Shown in pieces: positions 41,166-47,840 of a DNA stretch of 64,000 nucleotides. Position 1 is the first letter of the stretch, and each line of letters starts with the position of its first letter. Position numbers and translations under genes: made by a program. Source of the DNA: an uncultured Ruficoccus sp. (lineage in GTDB: Bacteria; Verrucomicrobiota; Verrucomicrobiia; Opitutales; Cerasicoccaceae); NCBI GenBank assembly GCA_965140785.1, contig OZ223514.1, positions 180,289-244,288 on the forward strand, given 5' to 3'. The notes under the pieces were generated by a model. It ran no database searches, was not told the origin of the DNA, and saw only the letters and a list, made by a program, of their open reading frames with translations.

Positions 41166-42212
41166 ATGCCAATTAATCAACGAGAGCTTGCAAAGCGGGC
41201 TGGCGTGAGCCAGACAACAGTCTCGCTCTGCCTCCGCTCCCATCCCTCAATCCCCAAAGGGACGCGGGAGCGGATACTCCGGATAGCACGTGAACTCGGC
41301 TACAAGCAGAATCCGTTGGTAGCCAGCTTGATGAGCGAAATTCGTTCGAATCGCCATGTCTCCTCTCAAAGTTGCATTGCGCTGTTAGTGGATGCCGAAG
41401 ATGAAAAAGAGTGGTTTTGCCATGAGCTGTTTCGGCAGCAGTATGAAGGCATGCGCGCCAGAGCCCTCGCTCTAGGATTTCGCACCGAAGTGTTCTATGC
41501 AGGACAAAAAGGAACGACCCTCCGCGCGATTGACCGTATCCTCCACACGCGCGGCATCCGGGGCCTCATTCTCGCAGGCTCCCGAAGAAGAGCTTACGAT
41601 CTCTCACTTATCCGATGGGCCGATTACGTCTGCGCCACGATATCGTACACCTGGGATCAGCCGGCGGTGGATCGTGCCTCGGCCCACCACCGCCATAATG
41701 TGGATATCGTTTTTCAGAAATTATCGGAACTCGGCTACTGCCGGATTGGTGTTTCATTAAGCCCTCATGCCCGAAAGGCTTCCGACCGAAACTGGCTCAG
41801 CGGCGCCCTACTCTGGAACGAGCTTCAACCCAGTAAAAAGCGTATTCCGTTTTTCGTGGCCGAGCAAACGGAGCATAATACGGAAGCCTTTGGCCGATGG
41901 ATAAAAAAATGGAAGCCAGACGCCATTGTCACACTGGATGGCTGGGAAAAGTTATGGCTACACAAACTCGGCTTGAGCACTCCTGACGATATCGGACTGG
42001 CATGTGTCAACCGCTCCACCGAAAGCCGGGTATCGGGCGTCTACGAAGACCATGATTTAATTGGTGCTGCCTGTATCGATCTTGTCTCCGCCAAATTGCA
42101 ACATAATGATTTCGGGCTGCCAGAGCGCCCCCATCTCCTATTGATCGAAGGACGCTGGGGTGATGGGGAAACTCTTCACCATGAAAAGGGCTGCCTCAGC
42201 CCTACGACCTGA
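41166..42212 (+). CDS. LacI-family transcriptional regulator
   Basis: QRELAKRAGVSQTTVSLCLR HTH and ARELGYKQNP hinge; divergent from the GH2 gene. Confidence 0.88.
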   Translation: MPINQRELAKRAGVSQTTVSLCLRSHPSIPKGTRERILRIARELGYKQNPLVASLMSEIRSNRHVSSQSCIALLVDAEDEKEWFCHELFRQQYEGMRARALALGFRTEVFYAGQKGTTLRAIDRILHTRGIRGLILAGSRRRAYDLSLIRWADYVCATISYTWDQPAVDRASAHHRHNVDIVFQKLSELGYCRIGVSLSPHARKASDRNWLSGALLWNELQPSKKRIPFFVAEQTEHNTEAFGRWIKKWKPDAIVTLDGWEKLWLHKLGLSTPDDIGLACVNRSTESRVSGVYEDHDLIGAACIDLVSAKLQHNDFGLPERPHLLLIEGRWGDGETLHHEKGCLSPTT

Positions 42213-42379: not shown

Positions 42380-42460
42380 CGCATCGCCCGAAACTGCCTC
42401 GATATGAAGCAAACGTAAACAGCACGGAGCCGTCACGGGATGCCTCCGAGCTGACCCCAC

Positions 42461-42799
42461 TCAGTTGACTCCGGTCTGCGCGTCGAGCAACTGGTGCAGC
42501 TTCTCCGTTCTCCCGGGCAGGAGGTTTAGGTTGCCTTTGAGGGATTCGGTGAAGGCGTTCTGGAGGGACCAGAGGGTGCGGGGGGTGAAGCAGGCGTGGG
42601 TGGGTTGGCGCCACTCGTGGAGGACTTTGGGGATGTGCTGGTTGGAGCAGACACCCTTGTCCACGGCGCGGATGATGAGGTCGTGGGCGGTGGGGTCGCG
42701 GAGCGGAGTGCGTTTGTAGCGCTCGATGCGGCGGTCTTGTTCATCGAAGCGGGAGACGAGGCGTTGGACGGCTTGATGGGCCAGAGCGCCGAGGTCGCG
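42461..42799 (-). pseudogene. 3' half of a DUF932-family gene (diverged duplicate of 46604-46942)
   Basis: 339 bp colinear with 46604-46942; similarity stops about 11 bp before the first 74-bp element. Confidence 0.8.
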
Positions 42800-42810
42800 A
42801 TTAGGCCCGA

Positions 42811-42884
42811 GGGGGCAGGTCAATAATTTAAATGTTGATTGTTGTCTGACTTGTGTGGTTATTCTAAATTATTGACACGACCTC
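42811..42884. repeat. 74-bp miniature inverted-repeat element, copy 1
   Basis: GGGGGCAGGTCAATAATTTAAA...CTAAATTATTGACACGACCTC, followed by TTCGGCT. Confidence 0.85.
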
Positions 42885-42890
42885 TTCGGC

Positions 42891-43043
42891 TCACAGCAAA
42901 ACTCTGTAGTGAAAAACAACTCAAGTATTCTCCGTAAAAAAATAAACAAAATTGGAAGAGCTAATATGCAGAATGAAATAGCAGCCAAGACATCCAGTGT
43001 CATTAAGGCTGTAGATAAAGCTGTAAATGATAGTAATGATTGA
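42891..43043 (+). pseudogene. Cassette 1 leader: apparent 3' gene fragment
   Basis: 50 stop-free codons in AT-rich DNA from the element boundary (SQQNSVVKNN...KAVNDSND*), ending 30 bp before the next ATG. Confidence 0.55.
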
Positions 43044-43073
43044 CCTCAGAAATTCCACTAATGTACCGTAAAT

Positions 43074-43712
43074 ATGGATGCTATTAATCACATCAAACAT
43101 CTCCATGATGGTCGGCTTAGGGAAATATATGAGGGGGATGCGATCTCATTTATTAATAATATTTCAAGTGTTAACGTAAATGGAGAATATGACCTAGATG
43201 ACTATAGGGAATGTGCATTTGGAGAATATTGGAGGAGGAGGATTTTGAGCCGAAAAACACTTGCTTATGATGATATTAGACATATTATTGAATATCGCCA
43301 TTTGTGGGGTTCATTATCCGTGATTGGTGAGTTTGCTAGGCTTGATTTAATAGCCCCATATTTATTAAACGATTTAATAATTAGCAAGGATGAAGACGTT
43401 TGGTCGTATCGGCAAATATCTGCCCGTAAAATCGTTCATACAGTGAAGGCTTTGATAGAAATTGAAAACCACATGGACTGTTTGACGATCATTAGTGCAA
43501 TAGACCGCCTCATCGAACTTAAGAATGTTGTTTGGGCGATTGAGGAGTTGTTGCCGCTATTACCATACAGTTGCTTGTGTTATCTTTATAACCGACTTAC
43601 AAAAGAAAAAATATTAACTCGTTCTCACCGAGGTCATTTGAATTCTCTTATAAAAAAGGTACTGCAGGAGAAAACCCAGAAGGAGTCAAATCCAGGAGGG
43701 CCATGTCAATAA
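43074..43712 (+). CDS. Cassette 1 ORF, AT-rich hypothetical protein (212 aa; candidate immunity protein)
   Basis: Long ORF in AT-rich DNA between elements 1 and 2; its TAA is supplied by element 2 (CCA TGT CAA TAA). Confidence 0.7.
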   Translation: MDAINHIKHLHDGRLREIYEGDAISFINNISSVNVNGEYDLDDYRECAFGEYWRRRILSRKTLAYDDIRHIIEYRHLWGSLSVIGEFARLDLIAPYLLNDLIISKDEDVWSYRQISARKIVHTVKALIEIENHMDCLTIISAIDRLIELKNVVWAIEELLPLLPYSCLCYLYNRLTKEKILTRSHRGHLNSLIKKVLQEKTQKESNPGGPCQ

Positions 43713-43770
43713 TGTAAATGATGGTTGTTGTCTGACTTGTGTAGTTATTCTGAATTATTGACATGACCCC
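43697..43770. repeat. 74-bp miniature inverted-repeat element, copy 2
   Basis: AGGGCCATGTCAATAATGTAAA...TGAATTATTGACATGACCCC; core TTGTTGTCTGACTTGTGT shared with copy 1. Confidence 0.85.
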
Positions 43771-43814
43771 TTCGCTTGACCCCTTCGCTTTCAATTGACC
43801 CCTTCGCTTTCAAT
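43764..43814 (+). repeat. Junction tandem repeat: 13 nt + 2 x 19 nt
   Basis: TGACCCCTTCGCT / TGACCCCTTCGCTTTCAAT / TGACCCCTTCGCTTTCAAT. Confidence 0.9.
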
Positions 43815-43976
43815 GGGCCAAGGGTAAATATGGGGGGGGCTCCCTACTTTAAATTTAAGTGGTCAGAAGTACGTTTTGAAAACTATATTACTGAGGAGAT
43901 TCCTCGTTCATCGATAAGGCTGCCTTCAGGATTTGATATGTGGAGAGCGATATTTGGTCAGCGAAAAATTAAATAG
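43815..43976 (+). pseudogene. Cassette 2 leader: apparent 3' gene fragment
   Basis: Frame open from the repeat (GPRVNMGGAPYFKFKW...MWRAIFGQRKIK*), ending 24 bp before the next ATG. An internal ATG means it could instead be a small ORF. Confidence 0.5.
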
Positions 43977-44000
43977 GTGTAAGCTTTAAATTAGTGTAAT

Positions 44001-44333
44001 ATGACAGTTGTTGTTTGGGCTTTACTTTCGTTATTCACGGTCAAGATCATTTGGAATCTTTGCGTGCCCTATATACTTTTAATGCGGTTCCGAAAGGAGC
44101 CTGACAAAGAAACTGGTTGGATTTCCATGAAAATTGTGGTCGAAATTTTTCTTTTGCTGCTGGCTGTGGGTATGTCGGCGCTGAGCACTGGCCAGGCCTT
44201 GGTAAATAAACCGCTAACTGTAGCAAAATGGGGTATTATTGCTATTATATTTACCTATTTACATTTATTTATTGTTTGCGGTATTGGGGGATGGATAATT
44301 AAAGTGTTTTATTCACAAGATAAGAAGGGATAG
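44001..44333 (+). CDS. Cassette 2 ORF, small three-TM membrane protein (candidate immunity protein)
   Basis: 110 aa, three hydrophobic helices, AT-rich; stop lies 2 bp before the junction duplication. Confidence 0.7.
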   Translation: MTVVVWALLSLFTVKIIWNLCVPYILLMRFRKEPDKETGWISMKIVVEIFLLLLAVGMSALSTGQALVNKPLTVAKWGIIAIIFTYLHLFIVCGIGGWIIKVFYSQDKKG

Positions 44334-44335
44334 AG

Positions 44336-44373
44336 GAAGCGCTCGAAGGGGTCAGAAGCGCTCGAAGGGGTCA
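44336..44373 (+). repeat. Junction tandem repeat: 2 x 19 nt
   Basis: GAAGCGCTCGAAGGGGTCA repeated perfectly at 44336-44354 and 44355-44373. Confidence 0.9.
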
Positions 44374-45367
44374 TGTCAATAATTTAAATATTGATTAGCC
44401 CCTGTGTTTGTGCTGAGGTGTGCGTATGGCAAGGGCTGTTCGCTTTCAGTTTCCGGGTGCGATTTACCATGTGCTCAATCGTGGGAACTACCGTAAGGAT
44501 TTGTTTACGGCGGGTGAGAGCGGGGCATGGTTTGTGCGGGCGCTGCAGGAGGCCAGTGAGCAGTGTGGCTGGCGTGTCCATGCCTACGTGGTGATGAGTA
44601 ACCACTATCACCTGGTGGTGGAGACGCCGGAGCCGAACCTGGTCGATGGGATGCATTGGCTGCAAACGACGTTTGCGAGCCGCTTCAATCGCTCGATGGG
44701 CGAGCGCGGGCATGTGTTTCAAGGCTGCTACAAGGCGCTGCTGGTGGCACCGGGTCCTCACTTTACGGGGGTGGTCAATTATGTGCATCTCAACCCCGTA
44801 CGCGCGGGCCTATGCACGCTGGAGGATTTGAGGAGCTATGGCTTGGGCAGCTATGGCCACTTTTTTCGCAAACATCGTCCCGACTGGCTGGTGCGCGCGG
44901 AATTCCTCGGCCAACTGCACCTGCCCGACAGCCTGAAAGGGATGAACACTTACGCAAAAATGCTAGCATTGGCCGATGAGCAAGACCCCGAAAAACGGGC
45001 GTCGCTGAGTCGCGAATATTGCCGGGGCTGGCTGATCGGTGACAAGGCCTACCGCGAGCAAGTCCTGGAGCGCATGAACAAGCATGAGTTGCGGGGGAGC
45101 CACTGCGGTGACGATGTCCGCAACCTCAACGAGTTTCGTTGGGAACAGGCGCTGGCAGAACAACTCAAGCAGCACGAAAAATCGTCAGAAGACATTGCCC
45201 GCGCCCCCAAGGCCGCCGATTGGAAAATCGCAATCGCCCGGCACATGCGCACCCACACCCGCGCCACCAATCCCTGGCTGGCAAAAAAGCTCTCCATGGG
45301 CCACCCCTCACGCGTCAGCAACTTGATATACAATCGCGACATTTAAATTATTGACATGACCCCTTCG
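44363..45367 (+). mobile_element. RAYT-like HUH transposase element bounded by perfect 27-bp inverted repeats
   Basis: CGAAGGGGTCATGTCAATAATTTAAAT (44363-44389) and its exact reverse complement (45341-45367). Confidence 0.85.
44426..45346 (+). CDS. REP-associated-type tyrosine transposase (Y1/HUH, IS200-like fold) with C-terminal HTH-like extension
   Basis: MARAVRFQFPGAIYHVLNRG, HUH motif MSNHYHL, HVFQGCYKA and catalytic YVHLNPVRAG; GAGGTG RBS; the stop codon lies inside the right inverted repeat. Confidence 0.9.
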   Translation: MARAVRFQFPGAIYHVLNRGNYRKDLFTAGESGAWFVRALQEASEQCGWRVHAYVVMSNHYHLVVETPEPNLVDGMHWLQTTFASRFNRSMGERGHVFQGCYKALLVAPGPHFTGVVNYVHLNPVRAGLCTLEDLRSYGLGSYGHFFRKHRPDWLVRAEFLGQLHLPDSLKGMNTYAKMLALADEQDPEKRASLSREYCRGWLIGDKAYREQVLERMNKHELRGSHCGDDVRNLNEFRWEQALAEQLKQHEKSSEDIARAPKAADWKIAIARHMRTHTRATNPWLAKKLSMGHPSRVSNLIYNRDI

Positions 45368-45418
45368 GCTGATTCGAACTAATTCAAGAATAGATATAGA
45401 TATAACCTAATAATAATA

Positions 45419-45685
45419 ATGGATTATTTAATCGCTATAAATAGGATATTTTTTTCTTTGACGGTTGTGTATTGGTATAATGTTATTATTGATTTTATTG
45501 ATTTTTTCGTAAAATACAATATTGGCCATTGTATATTGCTTGCTGATAATTCGTCTGTATTTTGGCATTCTTACTTTTGGTTGTGCTTTGGGAGTAATTG
45601 TATATTATCGACATTTATTTTTTTAAAATTAAAAAAACACTACTTTATTTTTATTTTTTTATGCGTACCGTATAGTTGGCGATAG
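45419..45685 (+). CDS. Cassette 3 ORF, very AT-rich hydrophobic protein (88 aa; possibly degraded)
   Basis: ORF between the transposase right end and a degenerate left end at 45709; preceded by a short open frame (LIRTNSRIDIDIT*). Confidence 0.5.
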   Translation: MDYLIAINRIFFSLTVVYWYNVIIDFIDFFVKYNIGHCILLADNSSVFWHSYFWLCFGSNCILSTFIFLKLKKHYFIFIFLCVPYSWR

Positions 45686-45708
45686 TTGCGACGCCAGGGG
45701 CAGAAGAT

Positions 45709-45845
45709 GGGGTCGAGACAATAGCTTAAATGTTAGTTGTTTCTGTGTTTGAGTGCTGTTGAGGAGATTTCCTCCTTCATGTTCTCCCAGCTAAAAAGAA
45801 GCCGTCCATGAGAGACCGGCTTCTTTTTAATCATCCCCACCGGGT
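45709..45845. repeat. Degenerate left half-element plus terminator hairpin, a diverged copy of 46431-46557
   Basis: GGGGTCGAGACAATAGCTTAAATGTTAGTTGTTTCTGTGTTT vs GGGGTCATGTCAATAATTTAAGTGTTGGTTGTTTCTATGTTT; hairpin at 45793-45828 matches 46508-46542. Confidence 0.75.
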
Positions 45846-45859
45846 GCGACGAACCTGAA

Positions 45860-45933
45860 GGGGTCGGGTCAATAATTTAAATGTTGATTACTGTTTGACT
45901 TGTGTAGTTGTTCTAAATTATTGACATGACCCC
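45860..45933. repeat. 74-bp miniature inverted-repeat element, copy 3
   Basis: GGGGTCGGGTCAATAATTTAAA...CTAAATTATTGACATGACCCC, followed by TTCGGCT. Confidence 0.88.
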
Positions 45934-45941
45934 TTCGGCTT

Positions 45942-46025
45942 TGCACAATTAACGTACATTATGTGATGAATACTAAAACTAGCCAAGTTGATGATCTTAA
46001 AATCTTTTTAGCAGGAGTGCGATAG
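45942..46025 (+). pseudogene. Cassette 4 leader: C-terminal fragment resembling a polymorphic-toxin tip
   Basis: CTINVHYVMNTKTSQVDDLKIFLAGVR*; its TAG ends 1 nt before the next ATG. Confidence 0.6.
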
Positions 46026-46026
46026 T

Positions 46027-46410
46027 ATGAAAGTTGAAGTAATTGAAAATAACTTTAGCGGCTGTCCTCCAGAATTGAAAACGTCTGGGTTTACGGCTGA
46101 AACTTTAGTTGATTTAAGCATCGGTGAGGAGCTTAATGTGTATGGTATGTCAGTGTTTTATGGCGTAGTTTTCGTTCTAATTAAAGATCATAGTGGCATC
46201 TATTCTTGGATGCCGAATTGGCTTTTTAAAGTGTTGGATGGTCGGTTCCCTAAGGATTGGGTATCAAACTTCTTTCATGATAACCCAAGTTGTATCATTG
46301 GGCCGGAGATAATTGCCTCTGACCTTGAAAGATATAGTCGATTTATTGAGCAAGACCCTGACCTTGTTACGAAGATGAACCTGTGGGTTGACTCAATGGA
46401 GTCGGGGTAA
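46027..46410 (+). CDS. Cassette 4 ORF (127 aa), candidate immunity protein
   Basis: AGGAG RBS; LSIGEELNVYG...WMPNWLFKVLDGRFPKDW pattern recalled from small proteins encoded behind Rhs-type toxins. Confidence 0.7.
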   Translation: MKVEVIENNFSGCPPELKTSGFTAETLVDLSIGEELNVYGMSVFYGVVFVLIKDHSGIYSWMPNWLFKVLDGRFPKDWVSNFFHDNPSCIIGPEIIASDLERYSRFIEQDPDLVTKMNLWVDSMESG

Positions 46411-46430
46411 CCCCATTGGGGGTCACTAAA

Positions 46431-46472
46431 GGGGTCATGTCAATAATTTAAGTGTTGGTTGTTTCTATGTTT
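46431..46472. repeat. Left half-element closing the array
   Basis: GGGGTCATGTCAATAATTTAAG, preceded by an extra GGGGTCA at 46419-46425. Confidence 0.8.
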
Positions 46473-46507
46473 CGCTAAATTTGCATCAGCCACGACCTTG
46501 CAGCTAT

Positions 46508-46542
46508 AAAGAAGCCGGCCATGAGAGGCCGGCTTCTTTTTT
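46508..46542 (+). terminator. Intrinsic terminator, probably bidirectional, between the array and the convergent DUF932 gene
   Basis: 13-bp stem AAAGAAGCCGGCC/GGCCGGCTTCTTT, 6-nt loop, T-tract. Confidence 0.75.
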
Positions 46543-46603
46543 ATCATCCCCCCCGGTTAAGACCGAGGAGCGGAGTTGCGAGAGTCCTCCGGGCTGAGCC
46601 TTC

Positions 46604-47360
46604 TCAGTTGAGCCCGGCCTGGGCGTCGAGCAGTTGGTGGAGGCGCTCGGTTCTCCCCGGCAGGAGGTTGAGGTTGCCTTTGAGGGCTTCGGTGAAGGCG
46701 TTCTGGAGGGACCAGAGGGTGCGGGGTTGGAAGCAGGCGTGAGCCGGGTGGCGCCACTCGTGGAGGACTTTGGGGATGTGCTGGTTGGAGCACACGCCTT
46801 TGTCCACGCTGTGGATGATGAGGTCGTGGGCGGTGGTGTCTCGGAGCGGACTGCGCTTGTAATGTTCGATGCGGTGATCTTGTTCATCGAAGCGGGAGAC
46901 GAGGCGTTGGACGGCTTGATGAGCCAGTTCGCCGAGGTCGCGCAGGATGAACCGGGTGTGTTTGCGGGCCAGCTTGATTTCTCCGGTGAAGGCGAGGTTG
47001 CTGCACACCAAGACCTGGGTGCTGGCGACGATGCCAGCGGGGAAGGTCTTGTCGTGGGAGTTGCGGATGCCGACGACCCAGCGGTAATCCCGGGCGGTGT
47101 CGCCTGCGCCGATTTCCAACAAGCCGAAGAAGCGGGTGGCTTCGCGGTTGAGGGCGTAGGCGGAGTTGACGATGGGGAGACCCGCGTTCGAGCAGGGCGA
47201 CCTCGACCGCGTTGAGCACGGTGAGGTGCGGGACGGGTTGCCACGTGCGGGTGGAAGGAGGCGTCGGGGCCTCCGCGATCCGGCTGCGGCTGACGGCGCG
47301 ATCGCCGCAATGCAGCAGGAGGTTGCACCGGTTGGGTTTGGCCTCCAGCACGATTGCCAT
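46604..47360 (-). pseudogene. DUF932-family gene with a +1 frameshift near 47180
   Basis: AGGAGG RBS and ATG at 47360 (MAIVLEAK...VALLERG); continues in another frame as LPIVNS...IRNSHDKTFPAG...VCSNLAF; length 757 = 3n+1. Confidence 0.75.
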
Positions 47361-47393
47361 AGAGGGCCTCCTTTCTTTGTGACCTGCGAAAGC

Positions 47394-47426
47394 AAAAAGG
47401 CCCGGATTCAGGTCGTAATCCGGGCC
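47394..47426 (-). terminator. Terminator-like hairpin just upstream of the DUF932 RBS
   Basis: Minus strand GGCCCGGATT-8nt-AATCCGGGCC-TTTTT. Confidence 0.55.
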
Positions 47427-47840
47427 CATAAGACAGCGAAAACGCTCGCTTCTCAAGAATATTTAACGCGCGGGAGGGCTGTGTTGCGGCGACAGGTGCC
47501 CGGGGATATGTCTTTCAGGTTACGTGACCGCTATCCCAAAAAGTGAAAACAGGAAAAGTGGCGTAAGATAATTGTAAAATCACCTCGCATGCCGCTTTTT
47601 TCCTAGATTTTAACATGGCGGGAAACCGCCTAAATATGTCCGGTTTTGAAATAGATCTGTCCGTATTCGGACAGATACGTCGATTTTACACTAGGGTCAT
47701 TTATTTACGACATGATAGGTCCCTAGCAACCGTTAGGTCCCGGAGCTCCGGAATATCCTCCTTGTGGCCGTAGGCCTCGGGGTCGTTTACTTGAATCGCC
47801 CTAAGTCCTTATAGATACGGCCATTTCGGCTGATTTAAAC

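Follow-up and report, generated by a model that had tools for sequence, protein, structure and literature searches.

A stretch of 64,000 nucleotides (nt) from the genome of an uncultured Ruficoccus sp. (contig C43:180289-244288; hereafter the window) contains an array of four small AT-rich cassettes (A to D) at positions 42810-46461, which is probably horizontally acquired. The island of 3.6 kb has a GC content of 26-44%, compared with 59% for the genome as a whole (4.36 Mb), and is flanked by a LacI-family regulator gene (41166-42212) and a DUF932-like gene. The array is built from copies of one element, namely an L arm of approximately 26 nt and an R arm that is its inverted copy. Each cassette has an R arm at its left end and an L arm at its right end. 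Doublets of approximately 82 nt (L arm, 34-nt spacer, R arm) occur three times and stand where two cassettes meet, and a gene for a Y1 (HUH) transposase resembling REP-associated tyrosine transposases (RAYT) lies between another L arm and R arm. Each cassette has one main open reading frame (ORF A to ORF D); the open frame between the R arm and this ORF is called its stub (stubs 1 to 4), and the region itself its leader. All features are listed in Table 1.

Table 1. Positions of the cassettes, arms, transposase gene and border features in the window (aa, amino acids)
Feature	Position	Strand	Evidence
Truncated 3′ copy of DUF932-like gene, left border of the array	42436..42810	-	86% identity over 300 nt to 46579-46878
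Doublet 1 (degenerate L arm, 34-nt spacer, R arm)	42810..42891		DNA hairpin, -12.1 kcal/mol, z -2.7
Stub 1, 50-codon open frame	42891..43043	+	Open-frame P = 0.03; codon-usage P = 0.135; antisense strand also open
ORF A, 212 aa, orphan protein	43074..43712	+	Stop codon 16 nt inside the core of the next L arm
Doublet 2 (43696-43777) and two more 19-nt partial copies of the arm inner end	43696..43814		Hairpin, -10.4 kcal/mol
Stub 2, apparent remnant of an Rhs toxin tip (its last ~53 codons)	43815..43976	+	43% identity to the end of an RHS protein; codon-usage P = 0.010
ORF B, 110 aa, hydrophobic, candidate cognate immunity protein for the stub-2 toxin type	44001..44333	+	45% identity to the ORF behind the RHS gene of G136
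L arm behind a tandem pair of 19-nt copies of its inner end	44336..44389		Repeat comparison
Y1 (HUH) transposase gene, RAYT-like, 306 aa, between L arm and R arm	44426..45346	+	PF01797, E = 4.4e-9, above cut-off
R arm of the transposase-bearing unit	45341..45370		Repeat comparison
ORF C, 88 aa, 26% GC	45419..45685	+	55-nt leader without a supported stub (P 0.57-0.77)
Degenerate L arm and copy of the terminator-like hairpin region of 46413-46563	45691..45850		Repeat comparison; 74% match
Doublet 3, best-preserved hairpin	45852..45940 (arms and spacer 45859-45940)		-19.2 kcal/mol, z -6.65; none of 200 shuffles folds as well
Stub 4, probably what is left of an Rhs-type toxin tip (final ~27 codons)	45942..46025	+	8 of 16 residues identical, E = 5e-4
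ORF D, 127 aa, unnamed family of candidate immunity proteins	46027..46410	+	274 representative proteins at E ≤ 0.001
Lone L arm, right border, followed by terminator-like hairpin (46501-46563)	46413..46461		Repeat comparison
DUF932-like gene, right border	46604..47395	-	Overlapping frames; 53% identity over 99 aa to a paralogue with a PF06067 DUF932 match

Candidate toxin remnants and immunity genes in cassettes B and D

The 400 other genomes of the phylum were searched in six frames with stub 2, and one strong match (E = 4e-8) was obtained in genome G136, at the very end of a frame of 2065 aa with nine RHS repeats (E = 1.4e-72). The Rhs-associated core of this protein occupies residues 1783-1861, and its toxin tip therefore corresponds to the last ~204 residues. 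In the pairwise alignment (E = 2e-13), 23 of 53 residues are identical; the homology begins at the first codon past the repeat (query residue 14) and ends four residues before the stop codon of the toxin. ORF B matches the ORF of 119 aa that overlaps this stop codon by 4 nt (46 of 103 residues identical, E = 2e-28). Because stub 2 and ORF B match adjoining genes of G136, cassette B is read as the 3′ stub of a toxin gene together with the gene in the cognate immunity position. Searches with stub 2 by tblastn against plasmids and by an extended word-based protein search gave no match.

Cassette D fits the same pattern, with thinner evidence for its stub. Stub 4 matches residues 312-327 of an ORF of 336 aa in genome G300, at the same distance from the stop codon. 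This ORF has an Rhs-associated core at residues 94-170 and is located directly upstream of a homologue of ORF D, which G300 alone possesses among the 400 genomes (E = 3.9e-9 with a profile, 8e-4 pairwise).

ORF D has no match to a Pfam family. With HMMER, its 274 relatives were collected from a representative library of 1.8 billion proteins; a word-based protein search had returned the query alone for both ORF A and ORF D, and its sensitivity is low, since HMMER then found these relatives. Family members, ~125 aa in length, are in some cases arranged in tandem or joined to a CPCC domain. A fusion behind RHS repeats is seen in one metagenomic relative, and a CPCC domain in another. On Ralstonia megaplasmids, relatives are encoded 0.8-1.9 kb downstream of giant CdiA-like ORFs in which haemagglutinin-repeat, DUF637 and DUF6862 domains occur, and on a Bacillus plasmid a relative follows an annotated barstar-family gene. 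The AlphaFold model (AF2) of ORF D (pLDDT 95.7) is a small SH3-like beta-barrel with C-terminal helices, for which Foldseek found no counterpart at E ≤ 0.001, its rows being weak SH3 matches, and a profile search of PDB sequences gave none. The family may represent new immunity proteins, directed against toxins whose C-terminus carries a short conserved motif.

On these sequence comparisons, cassettes B and D are very probably orphan modules out of Rhs toxin loci. They appear to keep the last 27-53 codons of a toxin tip, a remnant predicted to be too short for toxicity, followed by a complete downstream immunity gene. The ORFs would protect the cell against matching toxins, which the cell does not itself make. 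Rhs, contact-dependent growth inhibition (CDI) and T6SS (type VI secretion) domains were absent by Pfam from the 45 window ORFs of at least 110 aa (E ≤ 1e-4), and the sole Rhs-core match of the whole genome (TIGR03696) is on another contig, C10. The description of the array as orphan, with no delivery gene in the window, in the initial annotation of this DNA was therefore correct. The same annotation expected stubs to match the C-termini of toxins whose downstream neighbours are homologous to the cassette ORFs; this is the case for B and D, two of the four cassettes, and no credible match was found for A and C.

Open frames upstream of the cassette genes

The initial annotation also reported a stop-free frame in each leader, of 50, 53, 15 and 27 codons in cassettes A to D, with gaps of 30, 24, 8 and 1 bp to the cassette ATG, and these coordinates and lengths were reproduced exactly. 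Against dinucleotide shuffles, the length of the open frame from the boundary gave P = 0.031 (A), 0.028 (B), 0.68 (C) and 0.195 (D), and slightly wider bounds gave P = 0.033 (A), 0.027 (B), 0.57 (C) and 0.22 (D), with a Fisher P of 0.020 for the four together. As had been proposed, only the two frames of ~50 codons exceed chance (P ~0.03 each) and the 15-codon frame is weak alone (P 0.57-0.68). It is true that the frames run from the repeat boundary; since the arm carries a stop codon in each of the three frames, a frame that begins there does so partly by construction. A codon-usage score, trained on 2667 cassette codons and compared with stop-free random sequence of matched composition, gave P = 0.135 for stub 1, 0.010 for stub 2, 0.77 for stub 3 and 0.25 for stub 4. 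The antisense strand of leader A is open as well, over 51 codons. For the stubs and cassette ORFs of the window, NCBIfam, Pfam and PHROGs gave nothing usable; a word-indexed protein collection and plasmids gave nothing for the stubs, and tblastn of all stubs and ORFs against their own genome gave self matches only.

For comparison, 17 arm-bounded cassettes of the source genome and three congeners were examined. Leaders of at least 90 nt occur in 9 of the 17, and in eight of these nine, one frame stays open from the arm until no more than 30 nt before the main ORF, three of them with a 4-nt stop/start overlap. The six leaders from outside the window gave a Fisher P of 1.2e-4 for the open frame. 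In the remaining eight cassettes the leader measures 55 nt or less, too short for a stub. The generalization that every cassette consists of a stub and a gene accordingly fails: these 8 of 17 have no room, cassette C with its 55-nt leader has no credible stub, and the stub of cassette A has no match.

These data bear on the explanation that the upstream frames are non-coding leaders or chance frames and that each cassette is a single gene. It is consistent with the lengths of stubs 3 and 4, which are no longer than chance, with the codon usage of stub 1 and its equally open antisense strand, with the failure of stubs 1 and 3 to find homologues, and with the short leaders of 8 of the 17 cassettes. 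Against it, stubs 2 and 4 match toxin C-termini at the expected place and eight of the nine long leaders are fully open. It may well hold for cassettes A and C; as an account of the whole array it is improbable.

Still less probable is the explanation that the stubs are complete, expressed small genes, such as small toxins, leader peptides for translational coupling or toxin-antitoxin partners. Stub 2 does contain an internal ATG after a purine-rich stretch (43830) and stub 1 another (42966), the frame starts at an ATG of the arm in two sister cassettes, and one cassette of the congener G003 contains two complete small membrane ORFs. Stubs 2 and 4 are, however, homologous only to the last quarter and the last sixth of toxin domains of 204 and 166 aa, and the stub frames agree with the arm ATG at the chance rate of ~1/3.

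This ATG is located within the R arm (e.g., window 45354-45356; C10:294942; C39:143668), and the long frames that it opens in the two sister cassettes have 65 and 175 codons; in some cases the R arm could supply a start codon to a captured fragment. The inner end of the arm was also considered as a mimic of the sequence coding for the Rhs DPxG motif, i.e., as an in-frame fusion point; this idea was dropped because the stubs stand in all three frames relative to the arm.

For cassette A, a match of ORF A to a PHROG (E = 6e-4) covered 25 residues and was set aside as too short. Look-ups in a protein atlas led to unnamed clusters only, the best score for ORF A (0.86) serving as a lead only. The orphan-module reading of cassette A is possible and leans slightly toward doubt, and the presence of a stub in cassette C is unlikely.

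Arms, doublets and the Y1 transposase

The repeats were not recognized in the initial annotation for what they are, the palindromic arms of a RAYT-like Y1 transposase. A single arm gives a fold of 0 kcal/mol and is not itself palindromic, and the hairpins are formed by the doublets (Table 1); a scan with Rfam gave only a spurious microRNA-hairpin match in doublet 3, under the gathering score. The doublet spacers of the congener G003 are 165 nt long and still contain both the 5′ and the 3′ end of the transposase gene, which shows that the doublets derive from the transposase unit by deletion. In the transposase sequence an H-x-H motif and a later Tyr are visible. The assignment to IS200-type TnpA does not apply, NF033573 scoring 18.6 bits against a cut-off of 55 for this protein of 306 aa. 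A second copy of the transposase, 99% identical and with both arms present, is on contig C10 (C10:480073-481300, locus L015); by eye only, it abuts the apparent C-terminal end of a tyrosine recombinase gene.

Small co-oriented, promoterless ORFs between imperfect palindromes of ~80 nt recall an integron-type array, in which the repeats would be attC sites recombined by a tyrosine integrase. This explanation can practically be dismissed, since no tyrosine recombinase was found by Pfam among the 45 window ORFs (≥110 aa, E ≤ 1e-4), the palindromes are deletion derivatives of the Y1 transposase unit, and no attC end motifs could be recognized in them.

Just inside both arms of every cassette, two to four tandem partial copies (16-19 nt) of the arm inner end are present (e.g., window 43758-43814 and 44336-44373, and the cassettes of C12, C10 and L004). 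Their period is alike at both ends within one cassette and differs between cassettes. These copies could be enzyme-binding iterons or footprints of repeated cutting.

Sister cassettes and toxin loci of related genomes

Among 60 relatives searched, the arm was found in three of four congeners and in one other genus. In the sister cassettes, which share these arms, the genes code for Imm30 (E = 2e-14), a DUF6966 fragment, a Sel1-repeat protein (1e-14), a HEPN protein and a DUF3997 lipoprotein, and those of congeners encode Imm22/DUF4284 (1.8e-6, above cut-off) and Imm74 (below cut-off). On contig C10 of the source genome (G000), the genome's only Rhs-core gene (frame of 2210 aa) is followed by a small membrane ORF in the immunity position, an L-R doublet, a cassette and a further doublet. 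Behind a HAD-like gene, G000 has three cassettes and a transposase remnant, G002 has one different cassette, G001 has an arm-like remnant only and G004 has nothing. In blastn, the DNA of the window cassettes matched none of the family's 15 other genomes.

Elsewhere in the family, a transposase gene or a fragment of it was found just 3′ of a toxin-immunity pair in all five loci inspected. The toxins are of Rhs type in G003, G008 and G013, an Rhs protein with a PT-HINT domain next to an Imm33-like ORF in G009, and, in G014, a PT-HINT toxin next to a SUKH immunity protein; in G007, the L arm alone stands behind an Rhs-immunity pair. The distance from the immunity ORF to the transposase or L arm is 10-110 nt (G003, G007, G008, G013 and G014), and ~0.9 kb in G009, where the arms are a diverged set of its own, arranged L-transposase-R-cassette-L. 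The unit is found repeatedly after toxin-immunity pairs, in several related genera, and the cassette content at a given site varies between species.

In the array on contig C39 (locus L013), a second motif of ~35 nt occurs just after the ORFs (C39:140785-140820, 142395-142430 and 143153-143175), and a motif of ~30 nt before its L arm is also found beside the Sel1 cassette on C10. A GC-rich insertion sequence with two ORFs (C39:140932-142112) split one cassette of this array, leaving the DUF6966 fragment.

Borders of the array

The right-border DUF932-like gene consists of overlapping frames across 46504-47456 (minus strand) without a Pfam match of its own in the window scan, and is probably frameshifted. 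The left-border piece (42436-42810) matches 46579-46950 and the piece at 45691-45850 matches 46413-46563, so that the two placed end to end would restore the right-hand border as one uninterrupted copy. The segment 42436-45850 has the look of a former circle or of a permuted duplicate.

Origin of the array

Taken as a whole, the array is probably a set of orphan toxin-tip/immunity cassettes framed and handled by the arms of a Y1 transposase. In the mechanism proposed, the Y1 enzyme would act on the arms in single-stranded DNA; relatives of this enzyme act on hairpins in single-stranded DNA. Copies of the unit would land in the AT-rich toxin-tip/immunity part of polymorphic-toxin loci, behind the immunity gene and inside the tip. 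The DNA between two arms would then be transferred to, or recombined into, other sites with arms as a cassette, and selection would retain only those fragments with an intact immunity gene. Such selection would account for cassettes whose 5′ cut falls raggedly within the toxin gene and whose 3′ cut falls at the end of the immunity gene or a few codons inside it.

Both ends of the cassettes look like cuts, limited only in that the main ORF is kept. Most long leaders are open from the arm onward, and of the 17 main ORFs (from cassettes in the window, L011, L012, L003 and L005) five run into the far arm and take their stop codon from it, three of them at an identical position. The far arm may have removed the final codons of these five genes.

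Whether the arms are the agents of this process or its passengers is evenly balanced. The explicit alternative, that a classical orphan array arose by displacement or homologous recombination and that REPIN-like doublets were inserted later in AT-rich, non-essential DNA, is nevertheless unlikely. Its appeal lies in the descriptions of REPIN and RAYT as self-spreading intergenic repeats, in the fact that no mobility was seen, and in the closest transposases outside the family, of which four in five are not near an Rhs core (the fifth genome, G110, has its single Rhs-core match ~1 kb away). It is disfavoured because the homology of stub 2 to its parent toxin starts exactly at the repeat boundary, because arrays end in half units (a solitary R arm at the left end and a solitary L arm at the right), and because nearly all of the ~30 arms of the source genome are confined to five or six cassette loci and are not dispersed. 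The five main ORFs cut by the far arm also stand against late insertion, as do the DNA flanking each doublet, which was never contiguous in a parent locus (the end of an immunity gene against the middle of an unrelated toxin gene), and the fact that no orphan retains an Rhs core.

Several results weigh against the preferred reading, i.e., orphan cassettes handled by the transposase arms. With respect to the cassettes, searches of Pfam, NCBIfam, PHROGs, plasmids and its own genome gave no match to stub 1, ORF A has no homologue in any search including tblastn against plasmids, and ORF C has no family match and, in 285 genomes, only marginal matches, each with internal stops. The stub-4 match is short (16 residues, E = 5e-4), the open frame of stub 4 alone has a P of ~0.2, and its motif, readable in two adjoining frames just upstream of one Ralstonia relative of ORF D, is not significant alone (tblastn E = 0.7). 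All three frames relative to the arm are in use among the stubs. At the C10 Rhs locus, the two immunity ORFs have no BLASTP similarity to each other, and a relationship of the orphan stub to the main Rhs tip, seen by eye, was rejected for lack of BLASTP support. With respect to the enzyme, the best NCBIfam model of the transposase (NF047646, REP-associated tyrosine transposase) scored 64.4 bits, below its cut-off of 80; the transposase family is broad, occurring in 127 of 401 genomes of the phylum; and neither copy in the source genome adjoins an Rhs gene. An arm inserted within a full-length toxin gene, a step required by the mechanism, was not observed in the loci examined.

The contigs of three public runs from one study break at the arms, and no excision joint was seen in them; these contigs count neither for nor against mobility or expression, and one weak joint (side 28) was disregarded. 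No public RNA run containing this DNA was listed. One public run contains the transposase together with a 259-nt piece of cassette B.

A further reading, in which this RAYT-like Y1 clade is a gene-capture platform, an HUH counterpart of the integron that takes immunity genes together with ragged toxin ends out of polymorphic-toxin loci and stacks them between hairpin-forming arms at a few chromosomal sites, is tentative and rather doubtful. If it is true, the lineage would have a heritable, exchangeable library of antidotes. The array in any case provides, in ORF B and ORF D, two toxin/immunity pairings open to test, as well as an immunity-like family, as yet unnamed, of 274 representative clusters, and its cassette ends appear traceable to cut points inside Rhs toxin genes, with the arms of an HUH transposase as boundaries.

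Comparison with known systems

Orphan immunity arrays protect gut Bacteroidales from the toxins of rivals, and the only enzyme linked to such arrays so far, to our knowledge, is a tyrosine recombinase. RAYT-like Y1 transposases are, as far as we know, usually regarded as domesticated and without a known function, and we know of no Y1 (IS200/RAYT-type) element that carries cargo like this. In the literature collection searched, no paper among those listed linked RAYT or REPIN with Rhs, polymorphic toxins or orphan immunity. If the enzyme builds the arrays, a concrete function for RAYT-type transposases would be at hand.

The initial annotation likened the cassettes to the orphan modules of Rhs/CDI systems. 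Classical rhs/cdiA orphan modules consist of a 3′ fragment of the toxin gene and the cognate immunity gene without a delivery domain, and they keep a piece of the conserved core (the DPxGL or VENN region), which allows recombination onto the main gene. The combination of a 3′ toxin fragment with a downstream gene is shared, and one sister array stands directly behind the genome's only Rhs gene. The classical type is nevertheless not matched, since no core homology is kept, the stubs comprise only 27-53 codons, transposase arms enclose the modules, and the window array, instead of following a main rhs gene, stands far from every Rhs gene.

Among described systems, rAID-1 of Bacteroidales comes closest; there, low-GC orphan immunity arrays with integron-like intergenic repeats are associated with a XerD-family recombinase (Ross et al., 10.1101/471110). 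Co-oriented, low-GC orphan immunity genes against diverse toxin systems, repetitive intergenic sequence and an attached gene for a recombination enzyme are common to both, as is content that differs from strain to strain. The present array, which would work in a similar way, contains at least two co-oriented low-GC downstream genes with repetitive intergenic sequence; the XerD-like tyrosine recombinase at the 5′ end that defines rAID-1 was not detected in the window (Pfam, E ≤ 1e-4). In its place, an HUH enzyme of the Y1 (RAYT-like) type is encoded inside one of the repeats. The present arrays also differ in their long palindromic repeats, in belonging to another phylum, in standing beside or deriving from Rhs loci, and in their prominent toxin remnants.

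REPIN-RAYT systems (Bertels and Rainey 2011 and later) are described as tens to hundreds of dispersed intergenic REPINs, in which each REP is itself a small palindrome, with a single-copy RAYT and no cargo. A Y1 transposase between inverted repeats and hairpin doublets resembling non-autonomous derivatives are common to those systems and the present array. The source genome differs from them in having ~30 arms within a few cassette arrays, two transposase copies, arms that are singly non-palindromic, and captured genes framed by them.

Gene capture is known for HUH elements of the ISCR/IS91 type and for pairs of miniature inverted-repeat elements. There, too, adjoining DNA of arbitrary extent is taken up or lies between two short repeats; the enzymes are Y2 rolling-circle or DDE enzymes acting in trans, in contrast to the Y1 enzyme here.

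With integrons, the array shares compact, mostly promoterless cassettes between imperfect palindromes that are expected to fold in single-stranded DNA, and different cassette sets at the same chromosomal site in related species. It differs from them in having no IntI, attI or attC, in its HUH enzyme as opposed to a tyrosine recombinase, and in its half-sites on both sides of each cassette. If the Y1 enzyme builds these arrays, they would represent a second cassette-capture system beside integrons, and a mechanistically different one.

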